Shown here in pieces: positions 1,299 through 51,749 of a stretch of 64,000 nt of DNA. The translations under genes were made by a program, and so were the position numbers. The stretch lies in the NCBI GenBank assembly GCA_903861835.1, contig CAIOVX010000060.1:100504-164503 (forward strand), read 5' to 3'. Position 1 is the stretch's first letter. Each line of letters opens with the position of its first letter. The DNA is from Candidatus Firestoneibacteriota bacterium (GTDB lineage Bacteria > Oederibacteriota > D2-FULL-39-29 > CAIOVX01). The notes beneath the pieces are model-generated. The model had not been told where the DNA came from. It made no database searches and saw nothing but the letters and a program-made list of their open reading frames with translations.

Positions 1299-1431
1299 CA
1301 GTTTAGATGCTTGGATGTTTGGATGATTAGACGCTGGCACAAAACATCTTCCTATCCTGAACCTATTGTGAGGCAGAGGTTTTGACCTTGCTTTTGAGCG
1401 TCCAACCTTCCAACCCTCTAAGCATCCAACT
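1299..1431. repeat. Family A interspersed intergenic element, full copy R1, about 133 bp
   Basis: About 80-85% identical to 10556..10694 by eye. The 5' end carries TTGGATG octamer repeats and the 3' end carries CATCCAAC repeats that are inverted to them. It sits between the asmA stop and the PAP2 RBS. Confidence 0.75.
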
Positions 1432-4008
1432 TCACTTACCGAACAGTCCCTTCAGCAAATCAACGCCCTTCTTCTTCAACCCTTCCCCTTCTTCCTGCAG
1501 TTTCTTCTTTGCCGCGTTCTCAGCGTTTTTACCGGCGTTGGCAAGGGATCTGTCCATGTTTGGGCTGAAAGAAGGTGCCGCAAGCCGCCCGAAAACATCA
1601 AAATCAACAGGTACCCAGCCGTCCGGCCCGGCGGAATATTTTCCCGCGTCCCCCAGTTTTGAAGAAATTGAAGGAGAAAAATCATTCCTGACGGGAAGCT
1701 GCAGTTCTGAATCCAGGTCCCGGTCAAAACCCACCCAGCCGCCTGACCCGAAATTATACCTCGCGTCATCGCAGACGACCTTCATTTCGTCAATATTAAC
1801 CTTCTGCCCGCCTATCCTGGTCCTGCCGGTCAGCTGCCTGAAGGGTATCTCTCCGGAAGGATTGACTCCGAGAGCCTTGAACCCGTCGCTGAGCGCCTGC
1901 CAATTCTTAAGTTTGCCGTCAACAAGTTTAAAGTTCAAAGAGCCTACGAGATTCTGCTTAACTTCCTTTTTGTTGGCGCCCCTGCCGGAAAAGTTGAAAT
2001 CGGAAACGGCTGCTCCCGCCACCTTGTTCTTCACCACACCTGACATCCAGCCTTCGAGAAAAGAATCAGCCGCGTCATTGACAAAATCGCCTGTCTGCAC
2101 CCCAGAGAGCGTGCCGGCAATAGAATACCCGATACCGGGGATATTCAGGTCAATCTTCGCAGCCGTCTTCACCGTTCCTCCGTATCCGTTCATGGAAGCC
2201 TTTATATCCGCCGCTCTCTTCGCGAGTTTTACATTGGAAACAATGTCTGTGAATTTTATCTTCTTAAATGCTATTTCCTTGATGTTCAGGTCGGCTTCAG
2301 CCGAAAGTTTTCCGTAAACATATCCCGTATACGCCTTTATCTCCTCGTCGGTAAAACCTGAGTCCGCGGGAACGGCCGTTCCGGGCGCGGCAGCCGTCTT
2401 TGTCTTCGCGGGAAGCGCGTCCCAGACTTCGTCCACCAGGAACTTTTGGCACGAAAGCCCCGCCTTGATATCCCCCTCGAACTTTGTCTTCCAGTCGGAC
2501 ATCGTCTCCAGGTTAAAATTAGAAGCGGTTACATATCCGGAGAACGCGGAGGTCCCTGCAAGAAAGCTGATATCCGGCAGCCGCAGCTGCTTTTCCGTAA
2601 GCAACAGGGAAGAGTTTAGTTTTGAGACACCGTACTTTACCCCGCCGTACATAAAGCCGAGGCCCGCGAGCATTCCCGAACCATTGATTTTTATTCCCTT
2701 ATAATTAACCGAATAATCTTTTGTTATGGGAATGAACATTTTGATATCCACGGAAGCAGAGCCTTCGGTTTTCATATCGCTCATTTGCGGGAGCATTGAG
2801 ACCAGTTCCTGCACTGACAGGTTTCCGGAGACCGCCACATTGACCTTCGGCGCTCCGAATATTTCAGTAATGGACTTATCTGCCTTAAAAACTGACGCGC
2901 CCGTCTCTATGTTCGAGACCGCGCGGACCGCGTCCCTCTTAACATCAAAATCAAAAGAGATCTTCGTCTTAAGACCTTTGGGTTTTGTGAACAAATCGGA
3001 GTACTTCGCTTCAACCTGGGAAAGATCCGCGTTCCCCGAACCGGACGCGTAAATATCATAGGCTTTTCCGGATTGGCGCGCTTCCCCTTTTACCGAAAGA
3101 TCAAAAGAAGCAGTGCCGGAGAGAAGGACATCTTTCATATAGGCTGCCATAACCGCAGGGAGCATAGGGGAAACTGTATTTTTAAGCTCACCGCAATCCG
3201 CGGCAACCTTTGCCTGCAGAGAAAACGCAGGGGATTCCAGGAACTTTTTCACCTCGCCTGTGGCGGTAAAGGCAAGACCCGGAAGTCTTGCCGTGAAATC
3301 CCGCAAGTACACTTCCTGCTCGTCAAACTTCACCTGCATGCTTCCTTCGGCCGACAGATTAACAGGCGCCTTGTTGTATTCCATTACGGCGGACGCTTTA
3401 ATTTTGAAAGGCTTGTCCCCTTCAAGCGACAGGCCGGTTACCGACACATTTAGTTCTTTGATTCCCGCTTTGACGGCAGGAACAGCGGAGTAATCGCTGT
3501 AGCCTATCTCACCTGAGTTTATCACGAACTTTGACATGGAAAGCTTGACCGGGAGTTTCCCGGAGGCGTTTTGACCGGGTTCAGCCGCGAGGTGAGCAAC
3601 CTTCGTCCCATTCGCCAGGTCGGCAAAATTGTACTCGCCTTTTTTGTTCTTCTCTATTAATATCTTCGGAGAGTCAAGTTCAACGGTGGTGAGGTTGACT
3701 TTTCCGAGCAGCAATGGCAGGAACTCGTACCCCGCCGAAGCCTGTTCCGCCGCGATGAAAGCCCCTGAAGTAAAACCCTCTCCGTTTCTGTTGCCTATAT
3801 AGAAACCTTTGATTCCGATGCCTTTGAAAATATTAAAATCCAGCTTCTCTATGCGGACCTCCCGGTTCAACTGCTTTGAAGCTTCGGCCGCGGCAGCATC
3901 TTTGACTTTATCCCAGGGAACAAAAAAAGCGAGCGCCGCGCCGAGAAGAAGGAGAAGCAGTACCAGTATTCCAGCGGTCAGGGCGAGAATTTTTGCTGTT
4001 TTTTTCAT
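1432..4008 (-). CDS. AsmA-family (AsmA/TamB-like) outer-membrane assembly protein
   Basis: 858 aa. N-terminal signal-anchor MKKTAKILALTAGILVLLLLLLGAALAFFVPWD, then a long beta-rich domain. ATG at 4008 is preceded by GGAGGAG. Confidence 0.65.
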   Translation of the reverse strand: MKKTAKILALTAGILVLLLLLLGAALAFFVPWDKVKDAAAAEASKQLNREVRIEKLDFNIFKGIGIKGFYIGNRNGEGFTSGAFIAAEQASAGYEFLPLLLGKVNLTTVELDSPKILIEKNKKGEYNFADLANGTKVAHLAAEPGQNASGKLPVKLSMSKFVINSGEIGYSDYSAVPAVKAGIKELNVSVTGLSLEGDKPFKIKASAVMEYNKAPVNLSAEGSMQVKFDEQEVYLRDFTARLPGLAFTATGEVKKFLESPAFSLQAKVAADCGELKNTVSPMLPAVMAAYMKDVLLSGTASFDLSVKGEARQSGKAYDIYASGSGNADLSQVEAKYSDLFTKPKGLKTKISFDFDVKRDAVRAVSNIETGASVFKADKSITEIFGAPKVNVAVSGNLSVQELVSMLPQMSDMKTEGSASVDIKMFIPITKDYSVNYKGIKINGSGMLAGLGFMYGGVKYGVSKLNSSLLLTEKQLRLPDISFLAGTSAFSGYVTASNFNLETMSDWKTKFEGDIKAGLSCQKFLVDEVWDALPAKTKTAAAPGTAVPADSGFTDEEIKAYTGYVYGKLSAEADLNIKEIAFKKIKFTDIVSNVKLAKRAADIKASMNGYGGTVKTAAKIDLNIPGIGYSIAGTLSGVQTGDFVNDAADSFLEGWMSGVVKNKVAGAAVSDFNFSGRGANKKEVKQNLVGSLNFKLVDGKLKNWQALSDGFKALGVNPSGEIPFRQLTGRTRIGGQKVNIDEMKVVCDDARYNFGSGGWVGFDRDLDSELQLPVRNDFSPSISSKLGDAGKYSAGPDGWVPVDFDVFGRLAAPSFSPNMDRSLANAGKNAENAAKKKLQEEGEGLKKKGVDLLKGLFGK

Positions 4009-4108
4009 GGTTCTCCTCCGGAATGCTTGACGTGACAACATTATAACCTTCTGGAGGTAAAAATCAAAGGATAAAGAAACCGGCGCTCAGATCTCAAACC
4101 TTCCCGCA

Positions 4109-7924: not shown

Positions 7925-7954
7925 ACAATGAAAAAGGGCGGCTTTCGCCGCCCT
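7925..7954 (+). terminator. Rho-independent terminator after aroB
   Basis: Stem AGGGCGGC/GCCGCCCT, loop TTTC, then TCGTTTTCTT. Confidence 0.7.
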
Positions 7955-8031
7955 TCGTTTTCTTGCTATTTTGTCAGTCAACTGTCCTCTGCCTTCCGTC
8001 TTCCGAACTGCTGCGCCTTCGCACCTCTCAT

Positions 8032-8772
8032 TTAATACGCGTAAAGCCGCCCGTAAGGTCTATGCGAAAATGGATATAGTTTTATAAAATGCGCCTTCAA
8101 TATCTCTTCTGCTTTAAGTTTCGGAAAATATGAACAGTAATCCCTCACGTATTTCTCAAGCAAAACCCTGTCTTTTTCGTCCAGTTCGACCGCCTTTACT
8201 TCCTTGCCAAGCAGCCTCGGGTCTATAGTTTTCGTCCTGATAAAGATTGTGCCTCCGTGCATTCCGGTTCCTACGAAATCCCCCACAGGCAGCTTATCTG
8301 TGCCAAGGCCCAGGACTATCGCCAGCCCTCCGGCCATATATTCTCCGAAGAAATCCTTTACTTCCTCTCCTATTATTACGACCGGAAAGTTTTCTTCGAA
8401 GGCCTTCATATGTATGCCCACGCGGTAGCCCGCGTTTCCGCGGATATAGATCTTCCCGCCTCTCATCGAATAGCCGACGATATCGCCCGCGTTTCCGTGG
8501 ACGACAATGAGCCCGCTGTTCATAGTATTGCCGATGGCGTCCTGCGCGTTCCCGTGAACGATTATCTCGGGCCCGTTCATAAAAGCTGCCATATCGTTCC
8601 CCGGCACGCCGTTTATGACAAACTTGACCTTCTTGCTGACCGCGTCGCCGATGTACCTTTGCCCCATGGCGTTGTTTATAACAATCTCGTCAGCGTCCGC
8701 GAGAACCGCGTGAATCTTCTCATTTAAATCCCTATAATGCAGTTTGTCGGCGTCTATTGTTATCTTCTTCAT
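8032..8772 (-). CDS. Glutamate synthase C-terminal GXGXG beta-helix domain subunit, archaeal-type GltB3
   Basis: Repeated VHGNAGD, IRGNAG and VINGVPGND units. ATGA start/stop overlap with the upstream gene. Confidence 0.75.
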   Translation of the reverse strand: MKKITIDADKLHYRDLNEKIHAVLADADEIVINNAMGQRYIGDAVSKKVKFVINGVPGNDMAAFMNGPEIIVHGNAQDAIGNTMNSGLIVVHGNAGDIVGYSMRGGKIYIRGNAGYRVGIHMKAFEENFPVVIIGEEVKDFFGEYMAGGLAIVLGLGTDKLPVGDFVGTGMHGGTIFIRTKTIDPRLLGKEVKAVELDEKDRVLLEKYVRDYCSYFPKLKAEEILKAHFIKLYPFSHRPYGRLYAY

Positions 8773-10043
8773 ACTTCAGTACCCTCTCCGGTCACAAAGT
8801 GTTTCCTGAAATCCGTAGGAAGCAGCAGGAAACCGAAATCATCAGTCAGCAATTCTTTCTTCAGCGCCAATACATCCAGTTTTTCCTTTATCAAAAGGCC
8901 GTAGATGCCTGCGCGCTCTATACAGTTGACGAGTATCACGCCCACCAGCCTGTTATCCTTTACGACTATTTTCTTGTACTTTCCTTCACCGCTCTTTTTA
9001 ACAACCTCATAGCCGTCCTCTTTGGGGTTGGTTATCCCGAACGAGATTGAAGGCACTCCGAGTATTTCCACAGAGTTCATCGCGAAGCTTCCGCCAAACA
9101 CATCCTTCGCTCCGGACATATTATGCCCGGCCACTTTTCCCTGCTTAGCGGCGGTCGGCCAGATCGCGATAACCGCGCCCTTTCCGGAGAGGAATTCCAG
9201 CCCTTCGGCGCAGTCTCCCGCGGAAAAAACACCCGGCACATTCGTTTCCATCCTGGCGTCAACGACAATGCCTCGGTTTACCGCTATCGGCGTGCCTTTG
9301 GCGAGAGAAACCTCCGGGCGCACGCCCACAGCCATAATCAGCAGTTTCGCTTTCAGCTTCTTTCCGTTGCTTAGGACCAGCTCTTCTATTTTGCCGGCCT
9401 TTGAAACTACCTTCTTTATGGTGGTCTCTTTAAGAAACTCGCAGCCGTTCTCTTTCAATTTTTCTTCAATGATGGCTGAAGCTTCTCTGTCGAACGTATT
9501 GGCAAGCAGACGGTCGGCGATATCAAGAATCTTGAACTTCATCTTCTTGCCGAGCAGGGCTTCGGCGGCCTTCATACCGATAAGCCCGCCGCCGAGAATC
9601 ACGGCTTCTTTTACCTTGTTCTTCTCTATGTATTTTTCTATCTCTTTCGCATCGGCTAATTTTGTAAATGTGAACACTCCCGAAAGATTATCTTTCAGAC
9701 CGTCTACAGGAATCTTTATCGGTGTTCCGCCCGAGCAGATAAGCAGCCGGTCATAGGGCAGTTTCTTTTTGTTATTGATTTCGACATGGCGGCTTTTCGT
9801 CTCTATCTTCACCGCTTCGGTGTTATAAAGCACTTTCACGCCCATATCTTTCTCGAAATCCGTCGAGGTAAAACCGATCTTATCCTTGCTAAGCTTGCCC
9901 GCAAGGTAGTACGAGATCAGGGGGCGCGAGTAGAGCCGGTCCTCGTTGCTAATGACCGTAATCTCTCCTGTTTTGTCCGATTCCCTTATGGCGGTTATGG
10001 CGTTTACAGCAGCCACGGAATAACCCACTATCACATATTTCAT
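8769..10043 (-). CDS. FAD/NAD(P)-dependent oxidoreductase, NADH:ferredoxin (rubredoxin/putidaredoxin) reductase-like
   Basis: N-terminal VIVGYSVAAVNA dinucleotide fold, LYSRPLISYYL motif, a second GGGLIGMKAA fold, and no redox-active Cys42. GGGAGA SD present. Confidence 0.7.
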   Translation of the reverse strand: MKYVIVGYSVAAVNAITAIRESDKTGEITVISNEDRLYSRPLISYYLAGKLSKDKIGFTSTDFEKDMGVKVLYNTEAVKIETKSRHVEINNKKKLPYDRLLICSGGTPIKIPVDGLKDNLSGVFTFTKLADAKEIEKYIEKNKVKEAVILGGGLIGMKAAEALLGKKMKFKILDIADRLLANTFDREASAIIEEKLKENGCEFLKETTIKKVVSKAGKIEELVLSNGKKLKAKLLIMAVGVRPEVSLAKGTPIAVNRGIVVDARMETNVPGVFSAGDCAEGLEFLSGKGAVIAIWPTAAKQGKVAGHNMSGAKDVFGGSFAMNSVEILGVPSISFGITNPKEDGYEVVKKSGEGKYKKIVVKDNRLVGVILVNCIERAGIYGLLIKEKLDVLALKKELLTDDFGFLLLPTDFRKHFVTGEGTEV

Positions 10044-10065: not shown

Positions 10066-10506
10066 TTACTTTTTCATTTTTATTGCTTCGTTGGGGCAGT
10101 GCTCCACGCAGGCCGGTGTTTCGCGGTCTCCGCAAAGGTCGCATTTTGAAGCCACTCTCTTATTCTTCAAGTCCGGCTTAATGACTCCAAAAGGACAAAC
10201 CATTATACACATCCAGCAGCCGACGCATTTATCCTTGTCGTGAAGGACCGTTGCTTCCTTGTCCTTGTACATAGCCGAGGTAAGACAGGCCTCGATGCAA
10301 GGCGCGTCGTGACAGTGCCTGCACTGCAGGGCGAAGGTGGTATAACCGCATTTTTCGAAAGCAATGCAGGAATCCGTAAGCGGCTTGAAACCTTCGGACT
10401 TGAAGGTCTTGATTATGTCCTTGGATTTCGAGTGCGCGGTAACGCAGTGCACTTCACAGAGCCTGCACCCTAGACAGTATTCTTCATTTATCACTATTCT
10501 TTTCAT
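10066..10506 (-). CDS. Polyferredoxin with several 4Fe-4S clusters
   Basis: Several CxxCxxCxxxCP motifs. Upstream is a GGGGGAAAGAGG SD. Confidence 0.8.
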   Translation of the reverse strand: MKRIVINEEYCLGCRLCEVHCVTAHSKSKDIIKTFKSEGFKPLTDSCIAFEKCGYTTFALQCRHCHDAPCIEACLTSAMYKDKEATVLHDKDKCVGCWMCIMVCPFGVIKPDLKNKRVASKCDLCGDRETPACVEHCPNEAIKMKK

Positions 10507-10555
10507 ATTCGCCTCTTTCCCCCTGGTTTTCAGTGCCTTCCCGCTAAAAACTCTC

Positions 10556-10694
10556 TTCTTTGATGCTTGGACGGTTGGATGTTTAGATGATTAGACGTTG
10601 GAATAAAACATCTTTCCATCCGGATCCTTTTGAGGTAGAGGTTTTGACCTTGCTTTTAAGCATCCAACCCTCTAACCTTCCAACCATCCAACAA
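10556..10694. repeat. Family A interspersed intergenic element, full copy R2
   Basis: Homologous to 1299..1431 in the same orientation. It starts 1-2 nt after the gltB2 stop and ends about 50 nt before the ferredoxin ATG. Confidence 0.75.
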
Positions 10695-12188
10695 CTACCA
10701 GGCTTCGCCTGCGTGCTTAATATCCAAAAGCCTGAGCTCAAGCTCGGTAAGGTCCACACCGCGAAGCTGCGCGCGGTTGCCGCGGAGAGATTCAAGCGCG
10801 TTTATACCCATTCCGCCGAGCATTTCTTTTATTTCAAGAGACCACGCCCGAAGAAGATTAAAAGCCCTCGTAGCGCCCACATCCGGATTCAACCTCTTCT
10901 TCAGGTTTGGATCCTGGGTCGCGATACCCCAGTTACATTTTCCCGTGTAGCATTTCTGGCAGAGATGACAGCCGAGGGAAATAAGCGCCGAGCTTCCAAT
11001 GTAGCACGCGTCAGCTCCCAGCGCTATCGCCTTAATAATGTCTCCGGAATTTCTGAAACCGCCGGCGGCGATGACTGAAGCCCTCTGGCGTATTCCTTCT
11101 TCCCGAAGCCTCGTGTCAACCGAAGCAAGCGCGAGCTCTATCGGAATACCTACATTATCCCTAATCACAGTCGGAGCGGCTCCGGTGCCGCCTCTGATAC
11201 CGTCTATCACAACAAAATCCGCTCCTGCCCTTACAAGACCTGAAGCTATAGGGGCAATATTATGAACGGCGGCAATTTTCACGCCCACCGGTTTTGAATA
11301 TCTGGTTGCTTCTTTAAGCGCAAAGATCAGCTGTTTCAAATCTTCGATTGAGTAAATATCATGGTGGGGCGCAGGTGAAATGGCGTCCGACCCGACAGGA
11401 ATCAATCTGGTTCTGGAAACTTCCTCATCAACTTTTTCTCCCGGAAGATGCCCGCCGATGCCGGGTTTCGCGCCCTGCCCGACCTTTATCTCAATGGCCG
11501 CCGCAGAATTCAGGTATTCGGTGTCTACTCCGAACCTGCCTGAAGCTACCTGAACGATCACATTCTTGGCGTAGGGTTTTAGGTCACGGTGCAAACCGCC
11601 CTCGCCGGTATTCCAGTAGGTGCCGTATTCCGTCGCCGCTTTCGCGAGCGATTTCTGGGCATTCAAGGATATCGACCCGTAGCTCATCGCGGAAAACATT
11701 ATCGGGGTTGTAAGTTTTAACTGGGTGGAAATCTTCTGCTTGGGTTCGAACTTATCGGGTTTGCTGCCTATGAAGGTTGTGAGTTCCATCGGCTCGCGGA
11801 GCGGGTCAATGGAAGGATTTGTGACCTGTGAAGCGTTAAGCAATATATGATCGAAATATTCTTTGTATTCCTTATCGCTTCCCATACCGGTAAGGAGTAT
11901 TCCGCCGGTTTCGGCCTGTTTTATAATGCCGTAAACATCCCCCGCCTTCCAGTGGGCATTCTCCTTTATCTCCGGAGCGCTCTGCACTATGGTAATAGCC
12001 GAGGTCGGGCAGATATCCTCGCAGAAATGGCAGCCGACGCAATTCCCGTCGCAGGAAGAGAGGGTATTGCTCTCCTCGTCATAAAGATGCGCGTCGTTGC
12101 TGCACATGCGGACACAGGCCTGGCACTTTATGCACTTATCCGGGTCCCTGTTTATTTTGAAATTTCCCCTGAATTTAGACTTTGCCAT
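10695..12188 (-). CDS. Glutamate synthase FMN-binding subunit with an N-terminal 2x[4Fe-4S] ferredoxin domain, archaeal-type GltB2
   Basis: CIKCQACVRMC...CVGCHFCEDICP, then the GOGAT FMN/TIM-barrel region including GGTGAAP. Confidence 0.85.
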   Translation of the reverse strand: MAKSKFRGNFKINRDPDKCIKCQACVRMCSNDAHLYDEESNTLSSCDGNCVGCHFCEDICPTSAITIVQSAPEIKENAHWKAGDVYGIIKQAETGGILLTGMGSDKEYKEYFDHILLNASQVTNPSIDPLREPMELTTFIGSKPDKFEPKQKISTQLKLTTPIMFSAMSYGSISLNAQKSLAKAATEYGTYWNTGEGGLHRDLKPYAKNVIVQVASGRFGVDTEYLNSAAAIEIKVGQGAKPGIGGHLPGEKVDEEVSRTRLIPVGSDAISPAPHHDIYSIEDLKQLIFALKEATRYSKPVGVKIAAVHNIAPIASGLVRAGADFVVIDGIRGGTGAAPTVIRDNVGIPIELALASVDTRLREEGIRQRASVIAAGGFRNSGDIIKAIALGADACYIGSSALISLGCHLCQKCYTGKCNWGIATQDPNLKKRLNPDVGATRAFNLLRAWSLEIKEMLGGMGINALESLRGNRAQLRGVDLTELELRLLDIKHAGEAW

Positions 12189-12215: not shown

Positions 12216-12252
12216 CTTTTACTTTATAAACCTTATGAACTTTATAAACTTT
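12216..12252 (-). promoter_or_regulatory. Family C motif AAAGTTTATAAAGTTCATAAGGTTTATAAAGTAAAAG
   Basis: Overlaps the gltB1 stop codon and ends about 30 nt before the gltB2 ATG. Homologous copies lie at 36421..36454, 20155..20200 and 20307..20350. Confidence 0.4.
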
Positions 12253-13360
12253 TTGTTTTTGTAAACACCCCTATCACCGGCTTCCCCGCGTCAGGCATCC
12301 AGATGCGGTCAAGCACGGGGCTGACCGTGCGGATGGAGGCTTCTTCCGAAGCAATAAATAATTTCGACCCCTTCTCCCCGCAGACCAGAGGCCTAAGTTT
12401 GGTCCTGTCGTTTAAGCCAAGCATCATATTGCCGTCTGAAACTATTATCGCGAACGGCCCGTTCAAGAGCGCCGGCGCATAGATCATACGCATTCTGGTG
12501 TGCAGCTCCTTTTCTTCCGGGCTCATCCGGTCTATCTGAGACCAGAAGGGAGCAGCTATGGCCTTGCAGGCGTACTCATAGGAGAGCCTGTGCTTCCTGA
12601 CCAGCAAGTCAAAAAGATAAGCAATAACTTCCGTGTCGGTAAAGAGCGTGCAATAATATCCGAAGTTCTCAAGATACCTTCTGTTTATACCGTAGGAGGA
12701 AATCTCTCCGTTGTGCACCACGGTCCAGTTTAGCAGACCGAAGGGATGCGCCCCGCCCCACCACGCCACGGAGTTGGTAGGAAACCTGTTATGCGCAGTC
12801 CAGATATTGGCCTTGTAATCCGGTATCTTGAAAAATTCCGCTATTTCATCGGGGTTGCCGACGCCCTTAAACGCGCCCATATTCTTGCCGGAGGAGAAGA
12901 TAAAAGCTTCTTTTACCGTGCGGTTGAGCTCAAAAGCTTTTTCAGCGGTGTATTCGTCTTCAATTTCTTTCTTTGAGAAATCTTCAAGGAAGATGAGTTT
13001 CTCTTCTTTAGGCTTAAGGAAATACCTCTTCAGTATCGGAGGAGTTTTAAGGGTCTTTACAAACTTGGTCGGTATAGGTTCCGCGAGCCGGATATCAAAG
13101 TTCTTCTTCAGGAAAGCTTCCGATTCTTCAACAGCCGCTTCTCTGCCGAACATCATATGGAAACAATAGTAGTCCGCATGCTCGGGATAGATACCGTAAG
13201 CCGCGTAGCCGGAACCGAGACCGTTACCCCTCTCCATCATATTGCAGATAGAAGCAACGATATCCCCGCCGGAAAACACCGCGCCGCTTCTATCCATAAT
13301 ACCGGTTACGCCGCAGCCAGAAGGTATCTTATGAAGCCTGTCATCTAAAGGTCTTAACAT
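12242..13360 (-). CDS. Class II (Ntn) glutamine amidotransferase subunit, archaeal-type GltB1
   Basis: GATase-II features include an N-terminal propeptide before CGVTGI. ATG at 13360 with AGGAGA SD. The ORF track extends to TTG 13381. Confidence 0.8.
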   Translation of the reverse strand: MLRPLDDRLHKIPSGCGVTGIMDRSGAVFSGGDIVASICNMMERGNGLGSGYAAYGIYPEHADYYCFHMMFGREAAVEESEAFLKKNFDIRLAEPIPTKFVKTLKTPPILKRYFLKPKEEKLIFLEDFSKKEIEDEYTAEKAFELNRTVKEAFIFSSGKNMGAFKGVGNPDEIAEFFKIPDYKANIWTAHNRFPTNSVAWWGGAHPFGLLNWTVVHNGEISSYGINRRYLENFGYYCTLFTDTEVIAYLFDLLVRKHRLSYEYACKAIAAPFWSQIDRMSPEEKELHTRMRMIYAPALLNGPFAIIVSDGNMMLGLNDRTKLRPLVCGEKGSKLFIASEEASIRTVSPVLDRIWMPDAGKPVIGVFTKTKSL

Positions 13361-13386
13361 CTTGTTCTCCTGTCTTCCCAAAAAAA

Positions 13387-13419: not shown

Positions 13420-13447
13420 CATTGTCTGCCACATCACTGTTTCAAAA

Positions 13448-13476
13448 TTATATATCAGCGCCAACCGCTTGTCAAG
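13448..13476 (-). promoter_or_regulatory. Perfect-consensus sigma70 promoter TTGACA-17-TATAAT on the minus strand
   Basis: TTGACA is the reverse complement of 13471..13476. TATAAT is the reverse complement of 13448..13453. Predicted TSS near 13441. Confidence 0.6.
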
Positions 13477-20130: not shown

Positions 20131-20154
20131 AGGGCTCCTTCATAAAATGCTTAG

Positions 20155-20350
20155 AAAGTTTGTAACGTTTATAAGGTTTATAACGTTCTTAACGTAAAAC
20201 TGATAAACACAAAATTCTAAACTCTAAGAAATTACCTGCTTCTTTACTTTTTGCTTAGGATTTATCGCTTTGTGATTACACTCTGGTCTTGTTTTCTTCT
20301 CTCTGGCTTTACGTTACAAACGTTAAGAACGTTACGAACGTTATAAACCG
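20155..20350. repeat. Composite about 196 bp element with about 40 bp terminal inverted repeats built from AACGTT / GTTTATAAMGT units (family C), enclosing family B heptamers
   Basis: 20155..20200 is the reverse complement of 20307..20350 with mismatches. TTCTAAACTCTAAG lies at 20215..20228. The element abuts the recN stop and ends 25 nt before the iscS ATG. Confidence 0.5.
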
Positions 20351-30176: not shown

Positions 30177-30190
30177 ATAAGCTCCTCTAA

Positions 30191-30264
30191 ACAGATGCTC
30201 GGAAGTTCGGATGCCCGGAGGGTTGGACGCTGCACTTAAGCATCCGCGCATCTGACCCTCCAAC
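30191..30264. repeat. Family A element, internally deleted short copy R3, about 74 bp
   Basis: Shares both end modules with R1 and R2: AGATGCTCGGAAGTTCGGATG at the 5' end and TTAAGCATCC...CCCTCCAACC at the 3' end. Same orientation. Runs from the rpiB stop to the glyA SD. Confidence 0.55.
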
Positions 30265-30720: not shown

Positions 30721-30769
30721 CCTTGTTCCTACCGCGCTTACCGAACCTCTGACCATCCAAGCATCCGCC
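30721..30769. repeat. Family A element fragment R4, solo end module
   Basis: The minus strand reads GGCGGATGCTTGGATGGTCAGAGGTTCGG directly after the PTP stop codon. This is homologous to the first about 30 nt of R1 and R2. Confidence 0.4.
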
Positions 30770-36420: not shown

Positions 36421-36454
36421 GCACCTTACAAACCTTATACACTTTATAAACTTT
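36421..36454 (-). promoter_or_regulatory. Family C motif copy AAAAGTTTATAAAGTGTATAAGGTTTGTAAGGTG
   Basis: Overlaps the prfB stop and ends about 35 nt before the hemerythrin ATG. Confidence 0.4.
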
Positions 36455-39259: not shown

Positions 39260-39436
39260 TCAGAACCTAAACAAATATAAGCACCAAATCACAAGCATCA
39301 AATAACAATCAAACTAAATCACCTAAGCCTAAATCACAAAGTCCAAGCACCAAATCCCATATAAAATAATAAAAATAAAATCGCAAAATACTTTTGAAAC
39401 ACTTTGTTTTTACTTTTTTATGTTTATTTGGTGCTT

Positions 39437-46882: not shown

Positions 46883-46985
46883 AAGCACTAAATACTAAAT
46901 TCTAAATACTAAACAAGGCAAAGTGAAAAACGCCGGCAACAGCAAGAAAGATTGTTTTGTCGCTTTTGTTTAGAATTTAGTGCTT
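46883..46985. repeat. Family B heptamer array (CACTAAA-TACTAAA-TTCTAAA-TACTAAA) forming the 5' arm of an about 100 bp hairpin with 46967..46985
   Basis: TTGTTTAGAATTTAGTGCTT is the reverse complement of the heptamer arm. Located 20-120 nt upstream of the argD ATG. Confidence 0.45.
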
Positions 46986-47014
46986 AGCATTTTTTTGGTT
47001 TTCTTTTTTACGGC

Positions 47015-48646: not shown

Positions 48647-49507
48647 CTATGCTCTTGGATGCGCTTTCTTGTAAATCTCTTTTAATCTTTCAGTTGTCAC
48701 GTGTGTATATATCTGGGTGGTAGTGAGATTGGAGTGTCCCAGCAGTTCCTGGACGCTCCTTAGATCAGCCCCGTGATTTAGAAGGTGCGTGGCAAAACTA
48801 TGCCGGAGAGAATGGGGACTGATATTCTTGCTCAAACACGCCGCTTTCACCTGCTTATCAACGAGGAAGCGCACCATCCGCTGGTCAAGCTGCCCGCCTT
48901 TGTCGTTGGTAAACAGCCATTCCGAGTCCTGTGTTCTGACCGCCAAATAGGCGCCGGCCGCATCAACTGCCTTTGACCCAACAGGCACAATTCTTTCCTT
49001 AGAACCTTTACCGAAAACTCTGACAATCGCGTTTGCAAGGTCCAGATCTTTGACTTTCAAGCCGGAGAGTTCTCCAACGCGCATTCCCGTGGAATAAAGC
49101 AGCTCCAGCACAGCCAGGTCCCGCGCGCCGTTCTTTTCCTTTATGTTAACCGAGTCAAGCAGGTGCCTTACTTCGTTCTCTTCCAGGAACCTCGGCAGTT
49201 TCTTCTCTTTCCTCGGGAAAGAAATCCCGGAGGCTGGGTTTGTTTTATACAGGCCTTCCCGCTTGAGGAACTTGAAAAAACTCTTCAGGGTCGCAATCTT
49301 GCGTTCCATCGTGGCCTTGCTGAAGTTCCTTCCGCTCATACCTACAACAAATTCTCTGATAGTTACGGGATCAACTTCCTTCGCCTTTTTCTTCTCGAGG
49401 AATCTTATGAATTCGTCAAGATCACCCGAATAGGCCGCGGCCGTATTGGCCGAGTAGTTTCTCTCGTTGGTAATGTAACTCAAGAATTTATTCTTTAGCT
49501 GGCGCAT
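48647..49507 (-). CDS. Tyrosine recombinase XerC/XerD
   Basis: R...HxxR...Y catalytic residues: HSLRHSFATHLL and LGHSNLTTTQIYTHV. Confidence 0.85.
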   Translation of the reverse strand: MRQLKNKFLSYITNERNYSANTAAAYSGDLDEFIRFLEKKKAKEVDPVTIREFVVGMSGRNFSKATMERKIATLKSFFKFLKREGLYKTNPASGISFPRKEKKLPRFLEENEVRHLLDSVNIKEKNGARDLAVLELLYSTGMRVGELSGLKVKDLDLANAIVRVFGKGSKERIVPVGSKAVDAAGAYLAVRTQDSEWLFTNDKGGQLDQRMVRFLVDKQVKAACLSKNISPHSLRHSFATHLLNHGADLRSVQELLGHSNLTTTQIYTHVTTERLKEIYKKAHPRA

Positions 49508-51749
49508 CTTCCTTGGCTTCTTCCTCGTGCTTACATTCCGCGTTGAGGCACTTTATTTTGCCCTTAACCAACGAGGTAACCGGATACCCGCATTTCGTAC
49601 AGGCCTTAGCGACCGGCTTGGCGTTGGTAATAAAGTCGCACTTCGGGTAATTGCCGCAGCCGTAAAAAGACCCTTTCTTGCCGCGCCGCGAGACCACATC
49701 TCCGCCGCATTTCGGGCATTTGATGCCGATTCCGATGGATTTTGTGCTCTTGCATTCCGGGTACTTCTCGCAGGCAAGGAATTTTCCGAACCTGCCAAAT
49801 TTAAGAATCATATTCGCCCCGCATTTCTCGCAGACCACCCCGGTCGGAGCCGTTTCTTCAGCCTCGCCGCCGATGGACTTTGTGCTCTTGCATTCCGGGT
49901 AGCCCGTGCAGGCAAGGAACTTCCCGCGGAAGCCAAACTTAACCGCCATCGGCTTGCCGCATTTCTCGCATTTTTCCGCATTGGGATCGGCTTCCTTCTT
50001 CATTTCTCCGAGAGTCAAGGCTGCCTTGGAAAGTGATTCGGAAAAGGGTTTATAGAAATCCATGACAACTTTCTGCCAGGTGCTGGTGCCTTCTTCAACA
50101 GTATCCAGCTCTTCTTCCATCCCGGCGGTGAATTCCACGTTTAGAATATTCGGGAAATTTTTAACCAGAATATCGCATACGAGAAAACCGAGCTCGGTCG
50201 GTTTAAACCTCTTGTCCAACCTCTCGATATAGTTCCGATCCAAAATTGTGCTTATAATGGCCGCGTAGGTACTCGGCCGTCCGATATTGTTCTCTTCAAG
50301 CGCCTTAACCAGCGAGGCATCGTTGAATCTCGGGGGCGGCTGCGTAAAATGCTGATCCGGTATCAGCTTTACCAGTATGAGCTTTTGCCCCTCTGAAAGC
50401 TTCGGCAGCACCGGATTCTTGTCGGAGTCCGTCTCGTCTTCTTCGCCCTCTTTCTTCTCGTCCTTATCTTCGGTTATGTCATAAACGCTTAAGAAGCCTT
50501 TGAACTTTATGACATTACCCGTAGCTCTGAAAAGATACTCGCCGGCCGCTATATCTATGGAAGTTACCTCGAGCAGAGCTCCCTTCATCTGTGAAGCGAC
50601 GAAGCGCTTCCAGATAAGGTCATAAAGCTTAAACTGGTCCGTGTTAAGGAACTGCTTGATGGCAGCAGGCTCACGGAGTACGGAGGACGGCCGTATTGCT
50701 TCGTGGGCATCCTGTGAATTTTTCTTATTCTTGAAAGTATTCGGGACTTCAGGAAGATTCTCCGCTCCGTATTTGTCTTTAATTAGGCCCCTTACCTCTG
50801 CCAACGCGTCTTCGGAAACCCTTACCGAGTCGGTTCTCATATAGGTTATGAGTCCTGTCTCGCCTTCCTCTCCGACATTGACGCCTTCATACAGGCTCTG
50901 CGCTATCATCATCGTCTTTCTCGCCGTAAAACCGAGCTTCTTGGACGCTTCCTGCTGAAGCGTCGAAGTGATGAATGGCGGAGCAGTGTACCTGTTCTTC
51001 TCCCGGCTGTCTATCTTCCTTACAATATATTCCGCCGAGATACATTCAGAGACTATCTTATCTCCCTCTTCTTTTGTCTTGATGACTGCTTTGGCGCCTT
51101 TCACCTGGATAAGTTTCGCGTTAAACTCCGCAGTCTCCTCACCCTTTAGCCTCGCAATCACGCTCCAGTATTCCACGGGTTTGAAGGCTTCAATTTCCCG
51201 TTCCCGCTCGCAGATCATGCGAAGCGCTACGGACTGCACGCGACCGGCAGAGAGTCCGCGCTGTATACTCTTCCAGAGCAGCGGGCTGATCTTATAACCG
51301 ACCAGCCTGTCAAGGATGCGCCTCGCCTGCTGGGCGTAGACAAGGTTGGCGTTAATCTCGCGCGGCGAAGCAAGGGCCGCGAGCACGGCTTTTTTTGTAA
51401 TTTCATTGAACTCTATCCTGTGCGTTTCTTTCTTTTCAAGTTTTAGTTTGTTCTTTAGGTGATAACTGATGGCTTCGCCTTCCCTGTCCGGATCGGTCGC
51501 GAAGTATATGATATCCGCTTTGGAGGCGGCAGCCGTAATTTCTTTCAGCATCTTGCTCTTTGTGCGCATTACTATGTACGACGGCTCAAAATTATTCTCT
51601 TCGTCAAGCCCGAGCTTACTCTTGGGCAGGTCAATAATATGCCCCATCGTCGCCCGGACCGTATAGGTTTTGTCCAGGAACTGGGTGATAGTGTGCACCT
51701 TTGTAGGAGACTCCACCAGTATAAGTTTCTTGCTTACTTTATTTGCCAT
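49488..51749 (-). CDS. topA: DNA topoisomerase I with C-terminal zinc ribbons
   Basis: TOPRIM, the Tyr region, and several C4 zinc fingers (CEKCGKPM..., CEKCGANM..., CPKCGG...). Confidence 0.9.
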   Translation of the reverse strand: MANKVSKKLILVESPTKVHTITQFLDKTYTVRATMGHIIDLPKSKLGLDEENNFEPSYIVMRTKSKMLKEITAAASKADIIYFATDPDREGEAISYHLKNKLKLEKKETHRIEFNEITKKAVLAALASPREINANLVYAQQARRILDRLVGYKISPLLWKSIQRGLSAGRVQSVALRMICEREREIEAFKPVEYWSVIARLKGEETAEFNAKLIQVKGAKAVIKTKEEGDKIVSECISAEYIVRKIDSREKNRYTAPPFITSTLQQEASKKLGFTARKTMMIAQSLYEGVNVGEEGETGLITYMRTDSVRVSEDALAEVRGLIKDKYGAENLPEVPNTFKNKKNSQDAHEAIRPSSVLREPAAIKQFLNTDQFKLYDLIWKRFVASQMKGALLEVTSIDIAAGEYLFRATGNVIKFKGFLSVYDITEDKDEKKEGEEDETDSDKNPVLPKLSEGQKLILVKLIPDQHFTQPPPRFNDASLVKALEENNIGRPSTYAAIISTILDRNYIERLDKRFKPTELGFLVCDILVKNFPNILNVEFTAGMEEELDTVEEGTSTWQKVVMDFYKPFSESLSKAALTLGEMKKEADPNAEKCEKCGKPMAVKFGFRGKFLACTGYPECKSTKSIGGEAEETAPTGVVCEKCGANMILKFGRFGKFLACEKYPECKSTKSIGIGIKCPKCGGDVVSRRGKKGSFYGCGNYPKCDFITNAKPVAKACTKCGYPVTSLVKGKIKCLNAECKHEEEAKEDAPAKE

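Follow-up and report, generated by a model that had tools for sequence, protein, structure and literature searches.

A stop-adjacent hairpin repeat in the split glutamate-synthase operon of a Candidatus Firestoneibacteriota bacterium is one copy of a dispersed non-coding family

We analyzed a stretch of 64,000 nucleotides (the window, whose numbering is used throughout) from contig CAIOVX010000060.1 of a Candidatus Firestoneibacteriota bacterium (assembly GCA_903861835.1, positions 100,504 to 164,503 of the forward strand). The subject of this report is R2, a 133-nt repeat that lies within a glutamate-synthase (glt) operon, directly behind the stop codon of gltB2 and ahead of a ferredoxin gene (fdx). 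An earlier note on this DNA, made from its letters alone, had described the operon as a split glutamate synthase. The Pfam domains of gltB1, gltB2, the ferredoxin gene, the reductase gene and gltB3 bear this out, and the enzyme that they predict is a split glutamate synthase of the archaeal type. The features of the locus are as follows, in the direction in which the minus strand is read; loci of other genomes carry L numbers.

13447-13475, minus strand: operon promoter TTGACA-17-TATAAT (12/12 matches), upstream of gltB1 and kept in L001
13386-13420, minus strand: terminator-like leader hairpin followed by T8, just upstream of the gltB1 Shine-Dalgarno sequence
12242-13381, minus strand: gltB1 (Pfam GATase_2)
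10695-12188, minus strand: gltB2 (Pfam Glu_synthase (FMN) with an N-terminal 2x4Fe-4S), stop codon TAG at 10697-10695
10562-10694, minus strand: element R2, 133 nt, a non-coding hairpin repeat between the gltB2 stop codon and the ferredoxin leader
10661-10692, minus strand: 5' arm of R2 (mRNA sense), four octamers, GTTGGATG GTTGGAAG GTTAGAGG GTTGGATG
10598-10660, minus strand: core of R2, ~63 nt, common to R1, R2, L001 and L004, with the 20-mer GAGGTTTTGACCTTGCTTTT on the plus strand
10562-10597, minus strand: 3' arm of R2 (mRNA sense), CGTCTAAT CATCTAAA CATCCAAC CGTCCAAG CATC, complementary to the 5' arm
10507-10561, minus strand: ferredoxin leader with the Shine-Dalgarno sequence AAAGAGG, specific to this locus
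10066-10506, minus strand: ferredoxin gene (fdx), 146 aa, 4Fe-4S (Pfam), ATG at 10506
8769-10043, minus strand: reductase gene (Pfam Pyr_redox_2)
8032-8772, minus strand: gltB3 (Pfam GXGXG)
7933-7956, minus strand: GC hairpin plus T-run that resembles an intrinsic terminator, downstream of gltB3, where the transcription unit ends

The earlier note had placed the element at 10556-10694, starting 1-2 nt after the gltB2 TAG and ending about 50 nt before the ferredoxin ATG, and this proved correct to within 6 nt. Specifically, the TAG is followed by two bases (TT) and then by the first octamer, GTTGGATG, which starts at 10692. The 3' end is put at 10562 because the comparison with a second hairpin allele in a relative (L026, described below) sets the boundary there, and it leaves 55 nt before the ATG at 10506. 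These 55 nt are treated as a leader outside the repeat since both hairpin alleles share them. The octamers conform to the consensus NNNRGAKG, those of the R2 5' array being of the GTTGGAKG type, and their period is 8 as determined by TRF. R2 has a predicted minimum free energy (MFE) of -48.6 kcal/mol with a z score of -3.4 relative to shuffled sequences. A search of the whole window against Rfam gave no matches at the gathering threshold, the best sub-threshold scores being 18-20 bits relative to thresholds of 43-73.

All of the genes that flank R2 are on the minus strand, with one promoter, one terminator and neither of the two inside R2, in agreement with the intra-operon position that had been proposed for it. 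A promoter scan of the gltB2-ferredoxin spacer found no promoter-like sites on the gene strand, and a terminator scan found no terminator-like sites within R2 or the ferredoxin leader. The nearest terminator-like match is a 5-bp stem at 10711-10699 that is formed by the last gltB2 codons, overlaps the stop codon and is followed by GTAGTTGTTG. Since no promoter- or terminator-like site occurs inside R2 or the leader, the default reading is that R2 would be co-transcribed as part of the glt operon mRNA. A different role to be weighed here is that of a cis-regulatory leader dedicated to this locus, such as a riboswitch or attenuator for ferredoxin, reductase and gltB3, or that of an internal terminator. 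The location of R2 upstream of fdx and its strong structure agree with such a role. As regards a terminator, however, there is no U-tract directly after the stem, and the TTTTT that the window has 15 nt downstream is broken in L001. As regards a leader, R2 has no Rfam match, the truly locus-specific part of the spacer is the 55-nt leader downstream of R2, the same element is present at unrelated loci, and there are orthologous spacers without it. We thus regard a locus-specific regulatory role as highly improbable.

A separate hairpin is present in the leader of gltB1, where a 16-bp GC stem followed by T8 lies ~25 nt downstream of the promoter and resembles an attenuator leader, with no Rfam match. 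Both this hairpin and the promoter are conserved in L001, the remaining spacer there being 53-68% identical. In the distant relatives L019 and L021, GAF-ANTAR proteins are encoded beside glt/gln genes.

R2 has a second full copy in the window, termed R1, which lies between two genes unrelated to the glt operon.

1432-4041: AsmA/DUF748 gene (Pfam), flanking R1
1303-1430, minus strand: element R1, second full copy, 2 nt after the TGA of the AsmA/DUF748 gene and upstream of the PAP2 gene
724-1290: PAP2 phosphatase gene (Pfam), flanking R1

R1 and R2 are 82-86% identical over two blocks and 84% identical over aligned columns, and neither blastn nor an nhmmer profile detected further full copies in the window beyond these two. 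When species-representative genomes were scanned with the 20-mer of the core, two loci were obtained in Candidatus Firestonebacteria metagenome-assembled genomes, L001 and L004, together with two chance matches. The same 20-mer used against metagenomes yielded L012, which is the same locus as L004, and otherwise unrelated sequences only. When an nhmmer profile built from the four copies (R1, R2, L001 and L004) was run over 30+ loci, no additional core-bearing copies were found, the known ones scoring with E-values of 1e-46 to 1e-80. L001 is the orthologous gltB2-ferredoxin spacer, where the same element has a stop-proximal arm of seven octamers versus four in the window; the ortholog in L014, which is of the same lineage as L001, also has 7 units. 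L004/L012 is a third, unrelated locus with the same core, situated between two co-directional genes, the downstream one of which we take, from our own reading of its N-terminus, to be probably a 2-oxoacid:ferredoxin oxidoreductase subunit. In L004 there are ~19 octamers in the stop-proximal arm, and the TAG of the upstream gene is supplied by the array itself. The number of arm units among copies thus ranges from 4 to about 19, with an element size of 128-133 nt for the window copies and ~300 nt in L004, where the 5' arm is expanded. Overall, the core-bearing family is known from three unrelated loci in three genomes. The copies at R1 and at L004/L012 bear out the earlier note in calling R2 a member of a dispersed repeat family, and the finding of R2-type repeats elsewhere disposes of the alternative that it had named, a conserved leader specific to the locus.

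All four copies share the same fold, with arms of 32-36 nt each and pairing over ~27 bp. R1 has an MFE of -52.9 kcal/mol (z = -4.3), and the core-bearing copies as a group range from -48 to -91 kcal/mol with z scores of -3.4 to -4.3. As a side observation, the 20-mer GAGGTTTTGACCTTGCTTTT is also shared by an unrelated repeat of another organism. This repeat is located at the ends of four metagenome contigs (L005, L008, L010 and L011) or close to them, and it appears to be the terminus of a mobile element present in several copies.

The four copies also bear on whether this stretch encodes a small protein, either as a 70-aa open reading frame (ORF) on the minus strand (10583-10795) or as a 163-aa ORF on the plus strand (10587-11078). 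Both frames are indeed open. However, the 70-aa ORF starts inside gltB2 in its +1 frame and has no Pfam match, a 1-nt indel shifts its frame in L001, and a stop codon interrupts the equivalent frame in R1. The 163-aa ORF, for its part, is antisense to conserved gltB2 coding sequence. More generally, indels of 1 and 2 nt distinguish the copies from each other, and all comparable frames of R1 contain stops. The earlier dismissal of the 70-aa frame as coding therefore stands, and we see next to no chance that either ORF is real.

The history of the site was followed in orthologous glt operons, which were gathered through protein homologues; the closest gltB2 and serine hydroxymethyltransferase (SHMT) proteins are from relatives labelled Firestonebacteria. 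In distant relatives the gltB2-fdx junction consists of a 20-nt overlap (L019), 31 nt (L021) or 94 nt (L023), with no arrays in any of them. Because distant relatives have overlapping genes or a 31-nt spacer, R2 is an insertion directly behind the gltB2 stop codon. The R1 site is likewise empty in L016, where the AsmA-PAP2 spacer is only 7 nt (TGA-AAAAATA-ATG in L016 versus TGA-AG-[element]-TGGAGGGCGATTGGTTAAATTT-ATG in the window). The comparison of the gltB2-fdx spacer in related genomes that had been suggested earlier thus yielded element-free orthologs.

Closer relatives show considerable turnover at the R2 site. In L015, whose gltB2 is 89% identical, the spacer is 52 nt long and has nothing but a 5' array of four units joined to the beginning of the core. 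In L016-L018 (gltB2 84% identical) the spacer has a AATAGANC array, a GC hairpin and then 37- and 52-nt tandem repeats, the copy number of which differs between strains with identical gltB2 (339 nt at 11495-11833 in L016 versus 465 nt at 11495-11959 in L017/L018). In L026-L033 (gltB2 97% identical) a different hairpin occupies exactly the slot of R2 and is followed by the same 55-nt leader. This allele is built of GC-type octamers (GCAGAGGG..., CGTCTGAG CATCCGAA...) and is core-less, with a short unrelated loop. A GC-type core-less hairpin is also present at the R1 site of L026 and L030, with a one-octamer length difference between the two. The hairpins in L026-L033 have z scores of -3.2 to -5.6 despite their differing primary sequence. 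The TT-type arms of the window and the GC-type arms of L026 were considered as a case of compensatory evolution, which we rejected as proof because the two hairpins could have arisen as separate replacements and because complementary arms are a property of every inverted repeat.

This turnover is an argument for the main rival to a functional role, namely that R2 is a selfish or neutral repeat, born and altered by slippage and recombination, spread by transposition or gene conversion, and simply tolerated between the stop codon and the Shine-Dalgarno sequence. We hold this to be possible, though not probable. The number of units varies in near-identical sequences (4 versus 7 versus ~19, and the one-octamer indel between L030 and L026), and the element was lost or halved in L015 and replaced in L016-L018 by unrelated tandem repeats that vary between strains. 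The retention of hairpins at the same sites despite replacement of their sequence, on the other hand, counts against a tolerated repeat.

The reading that we favor, at a probability of about 60%, is that R2 is one copy of a dispersed non-coding hairpin repeat family that would be co-transcribed with its operon and would act in the manner of the REP/BIME, ERIC and STRR hairpins. Conservation speaks for a function and against a merely tolerated repeat in two independent comparisons, in each of which the element is far better conserved than the synonymous sites of both flanks. Between the window and L001 the element is identical at 130/138 positions, relative to 51-54% at 4-fold sites in gltB2 and the ferredoxin gene and 53-68% in the non-functional part of the upstream intergenic region. 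Between L026 and L030 the spacer is identical at 157/159 positions and both flanking genes are at 74% at 4-fold sites, which again lends some support to constraint on the sequence, with the same caveat of mosaicism that is given below for the first comparison. Predicted folding adds to this. The sense strand of the core-bearing copies folds 8-35 kcal/mol better than the antisense strand, and the consensus structure of the four copies has 42 pairs that comprise 131 Watson-Crick and 30 G-U instances versus 1 A-C, although this G-U count is biased because the structure was predicted on the sense strand. In the models, the folding asymmetry and the excess of G-U over A-C would favor selection on the transcript.

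Several observations, in addition to the bias in the G-U count, weigh against this reading. The asymmetry between sense and antisense folding vanishes in the GC-type allele. Third-position identity next to R2 is 80% locally, not 53%, and three-way site patterns place a recombination breakpoint of L014 ~100 nt upstream of R2, with L014 being identical to L026 over gltB2 nt 1-1300 and then window-like for the last ~100 nt. R2 may thus have travelled on a recombination tract, and because of this breakpoint near R2 we have withdrawn the claim of clean purifying selection that the 94% versus 53% at 4-fold sites (window versus L001) had appeared to offer. L026, L030, L031 and L032 are likewise gene-by-gene mosaics (100% versus 65-75% 4-fold identity), and the high identity may reflect recent exchange or chimeric assembly instead of purifying selection. 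The element is also evolutionarily dispensable, as there is a half array in L015, unrelated repeats in L016 and none in the distant relatives. Finally, the core-bearing family has the same orientation at 3/3 loci, but with no more than three independent loci this is not significant, and the orientation bias is not counted as evidence because almost every gene of the window is on the same strand. In fairness, the hairpins of a given allele are far better conserved than neutral sites, and from one allele to another they are replaced wholesale. This pattern can be explained by selection, by recent spread or by both.

Under the favored reading of R2 as a co-transcribed hairpin repeat, the element was inserted directly behind the gltB2 stop codon, at a junction that in distant relatives is tight (an overlap or ~30 nt). 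Transcription of the glt mRNA would run through it, beginning at the one promoter ahead of gltB1 and finishing at the terminator behind gltB3, and in this mRNA the element would form an imperfect stem of ~27-35 bp with its foot abutting the stop codon. An intercistronic stem-loop of this kind could block 3'-5' decay or serve as a processing site, a role that is plausible because of the analogy with REP/BIME, ERIC and the hupS-hupL STRR hairpins. R2 could also physically uncouple translation of ferredoxin from that of gltB2, with the tight coupling seen in relatives giving way to independent initiation on the ferredoxin leader. The upstream and downstream segments of the operon could then differ in level. 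The suggestion in the earlier note that R2 may set subunit stoichiometry would be compatible with such a mechanism. We infer read-through transcription, folding in vivo and the effects on stability, translation and stoichiometry from the features described above.

R2 is also part of a wider pattern of short tandem arrays that start at stop codons. The additional arrays of this kind in the window are as follows.

30746-30767, minus strand: half array consisting of the 5' arm, between a low-molecular-weight phosphatase gene, whose TGA it directly follows, and rpiB
30186-30264, minus strand: core-less octamer hairpin that fills the rpiB-glyA spacer right after the TAG, with a z score of only -1.7
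7983-8031, minus strand: degenerate array of octamers that abuts the gltB3 stop codon and precedes the operon terminator
20131-20350: full inverted-array hairpin of 9-nt units, between a RecN-like gene and a cysteine desulfurase gene
12221-12252, minus strand: half array of 9-nt units at the gltB1-gltB2 junction, starting inside the end of gltB1
36426-36454: half array of 9-nt units, after prfA

Arrays of GANG-N4 octamers number 7 in the window versus 0.5 in shuffled sequences, far more than chance would give. Every close Firestonebacteria lineage has them, and the AT-rich distant relatives have none. Measured from the stop codon of an ORF no shorter than 100 aa, the start of each of the 11 sense-strand arrays (4 in the window, 4 in L026 and 1 each in L001, L015 and L016) lies at -1 to +8 nt. 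The proximity is partly forced because the ancestral spacers are only 7-31 nt, a point in favor of a selfish or tolerated repeat. However, the arrays abut the stop codon even where the spacer is long, as seen with ~120 nt after gltB3 and ~200 nt after a 1154-aa gene of L026, which counts against a tolerated repeat. Length variation extends to the rpiB-glyA spacer, which from gene coordinates only is 111 nt in a relative with 93% identical SHMT versus 88 nt in the window, a difference of about three octamers.

The slot behind gltB3 is filled in different ways. Octamer arrays are present there in the window, in L026 (14128-14260) and in L016 (14283-14404), and 9-mer CGTTNNTAA arrays in L030-L032 (8902-8991 in L030). 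The arrays of the window, L026 and L030-L032 precede the same terminator hairpin. This occurrence of 8-mers or 9-mers depending on the lineage is a further point in favor of a selfish repeat. The 9-nt units (GTTTATAAC, CGTTCTTAA) constitute a second family that occupies equivalent post-stop positions. Its array at the end of gltB1 supplies TAA codons in frame, spaced 9 nt apart, of which there are three in the window and, by our count, six in L014.

One could go further and propose that the post-stop position in this Firestonebacteria clade is a selected slot for interchangeable arrays that act at translation termination, a proposal that we consider rather doubtful. According to this proposal the slot would accept 8-mers with GGA or Shine-Dalgarno-like motifs or 9-mers with TAA, with or without a complementary arm, and these arrays would be swapped between strains like alleles and be nearly invariant within an allele. 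They might hold back or stall a ribosome that is terminating, or bring in a GGA-binding regulator, and in this way set re-initiation at the next cistron and protect the upstream message, and the hairpins might serve as the crossover points that produce the gene-by-gene strain mosaic.

A related idea is that the octamer arrays themselves are binding platforms, whether for retaining terminating ribosomes at the stop codon by anti-Shine-Dalgarno pairing and so favoring downstream re-initiation, for titrating a CsrA-like regulator that binds GGA or for forming two-tetrad G-quadruplexes. The units present GGATG, GGAAG, GGAGG or AGAGG every 8 nt, and they resemble the CsrB/RsmZ repeats and the GGTTGG thrombin-aptamer motif. 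Half arrays with no complementary arm persist in L015 and at 30746-30767, and L001 and L004 have expanded only the stop-proximal G-rich arm, leaving ~3 and >10 units unpaired. Despite these points we judge a binding platform to be unlikely, as the 9-nt family occurs at the same post-stop positions without GGA or G-runs. Also, since the element is an inverted repeat, its opposite strand carries the same GGA motifs, which counts against such a platform.

The post-stop location invites comparison with the attC recombination sites of integrons as well. These sites closely follow cassette ORFs and have the core-site consensus GTTRRRY / RYYYAAC, and by inspection of the sequence the octamer GTTGGAT fits GTTRRRY and the complementary ATCCAAC fits RYYYAAC. 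However, in R2 the GTTRRRY-like end comes first after the ORF, which is the reverse of the attC order, and the motif is tandemly repeated 4 to ~19 times. Moreover, the neighbors are syntenic housekeeping operon genes in five lineages and not cassettes, and no integrase was seen. The odds of an attC-like site are, in our estimation, vanishingly small.

Three other repeats in the window were recorded. An intercistronic hairpin of 14-nt AAGCACCAAATAAC-type arrays lies between atpG and atpD (39260-39436), and one of 7-nt ACTAAAT arrays lies upstream of an aminotransferase gene (46884-47014); in both of these the C/A-rich arm comes first in gene sense. At 49732-49970, within the 753-aa ORF 49488-51749, a 101-nt unit occurs twice in direct orientation at a distance of 138 nt and with 76% identity, and this duplicate is probably an internal protein repeat.

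The repeats have practical consequences for annotation and assembly. Gene callers read into the arrays, as is evident for SHMT (glyA), which is automatically called as 442-446 aa versus a conserved 417 aa, and for spurious ORFs of 61-70 aa. Assemblies or strains switch haplotype exactly at repeat-bearing spacers, the mosaic switches among L026 and L030-L032 falling at such spacers, and the mosaic reflects either real recombination at the hairpins or strain-chimeric metagenome assembly. It is unusual that the arrays start strictly at stop codons and that whole hairpins are replaced in the manner of alleles. If this pattern holds genome-wide, it would offer a natural system for the effects that an intercistronic structure at the leading edge of the ribosome has on termination, coupling and segmental mRNA stability. 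The family, a previously undescribed one from a candidate phylum that has no cultured member, joins the co-transcribed intergenic hairpin repeats, and the REP or ERIC-like elements to which the earlier note had likened it are the right kind of comparison.

A close architectural parallel may be drawn with the STRR hairpins of heterocystous cyanobacteria, which have 7-nt units, lie between hupS and hupL and have been proposed to affect transcript stability or translational coupling (PMC2670836). The R2 family resembles them in having short tandem units arranged as inverted arrays that are capable of forming an intercistronic operon hairpin, with a variable number of units. It differs from them in phylum and unit sequence, in its 8- or 9-nt period versus a heptanucleotide, in a ~63-nt unique core that is dispersed together with the arms, and in the start of R2-type arrays at the stop codon. 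ERIC elements are imperfect palindromes of ~127 nt with a conserved center that are found in transcribed intergenic regions, including within operons. R2 is likewise an imperfect palindrome of similar size with a conserved center in an operon spacer, but no sequence relationship between the two was found, nor would one be expected, the taxon is a different one, and the arms of ERIC are not built from short units in tandem.

REP/BIME elements of Enterobacteria and Pseudomonas are extragenic, co-transcribed palindromes, located within operons and at the 3' ends of genes, with tandem modules in variable number in BIMEs and documented effects on mRNA stability (PMC3184786). All copies of the R2 family similarly lie between co-directional genes, 0-8 nt after a stop codon, where they would be transcribed; the 64-kb window has 2 of them. 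The REP unit, however, is a GC-rich palindrome of 20-40 nt, whereas here the unit is 8 nt and the palindrome is the whole 133-nt element. The association with a RAYT (Y1) transposase is theirs; none has been linked to the R2 family, for which no RAYT search was made. BOX elements of Streptococcus pneumoniae are transcribed, modular and variable in module number and can modulate the expression of neighboring genes (PMC3184786), but they are built as boxA-boxB(n)-boxC from modules of 45-60 nt, unlike the 8-nt array, core and inverted array seen here.

Lastly, Chunjie, a MITE found in Geobacter uraniireducens, is a small non-coding inverted-repeat element located in an operon that it does not split, as given in the statements from Chen et al. 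2008 that are cited in PMC3184786 and PMC10969869. According to these secondary accounts the terminal inverted repeats of Chunjie measure 21 bp and its direct repeats 9 bp, and no such duplication is visible for the R2 family. A target-site duplication is absent when the filled R1 site is compared with the empty site of L016, and none is seen at R2 or L004. As with MITEs, the R2 family has terminal inverted repeats, although its arms are arrays of 8-nt units and not unique repeats, and it is small, does not code for protein and is dispersed in multiple copies, at three unrelated loci across three genomes and with ORFs that are not conserved. R2 would thus work like the known families while belonging to none of them and is best filed as a co-transcribed intergenic hairpin repeat. 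As it stands, it is an element of an ordinary kind from an organism that is unusual.

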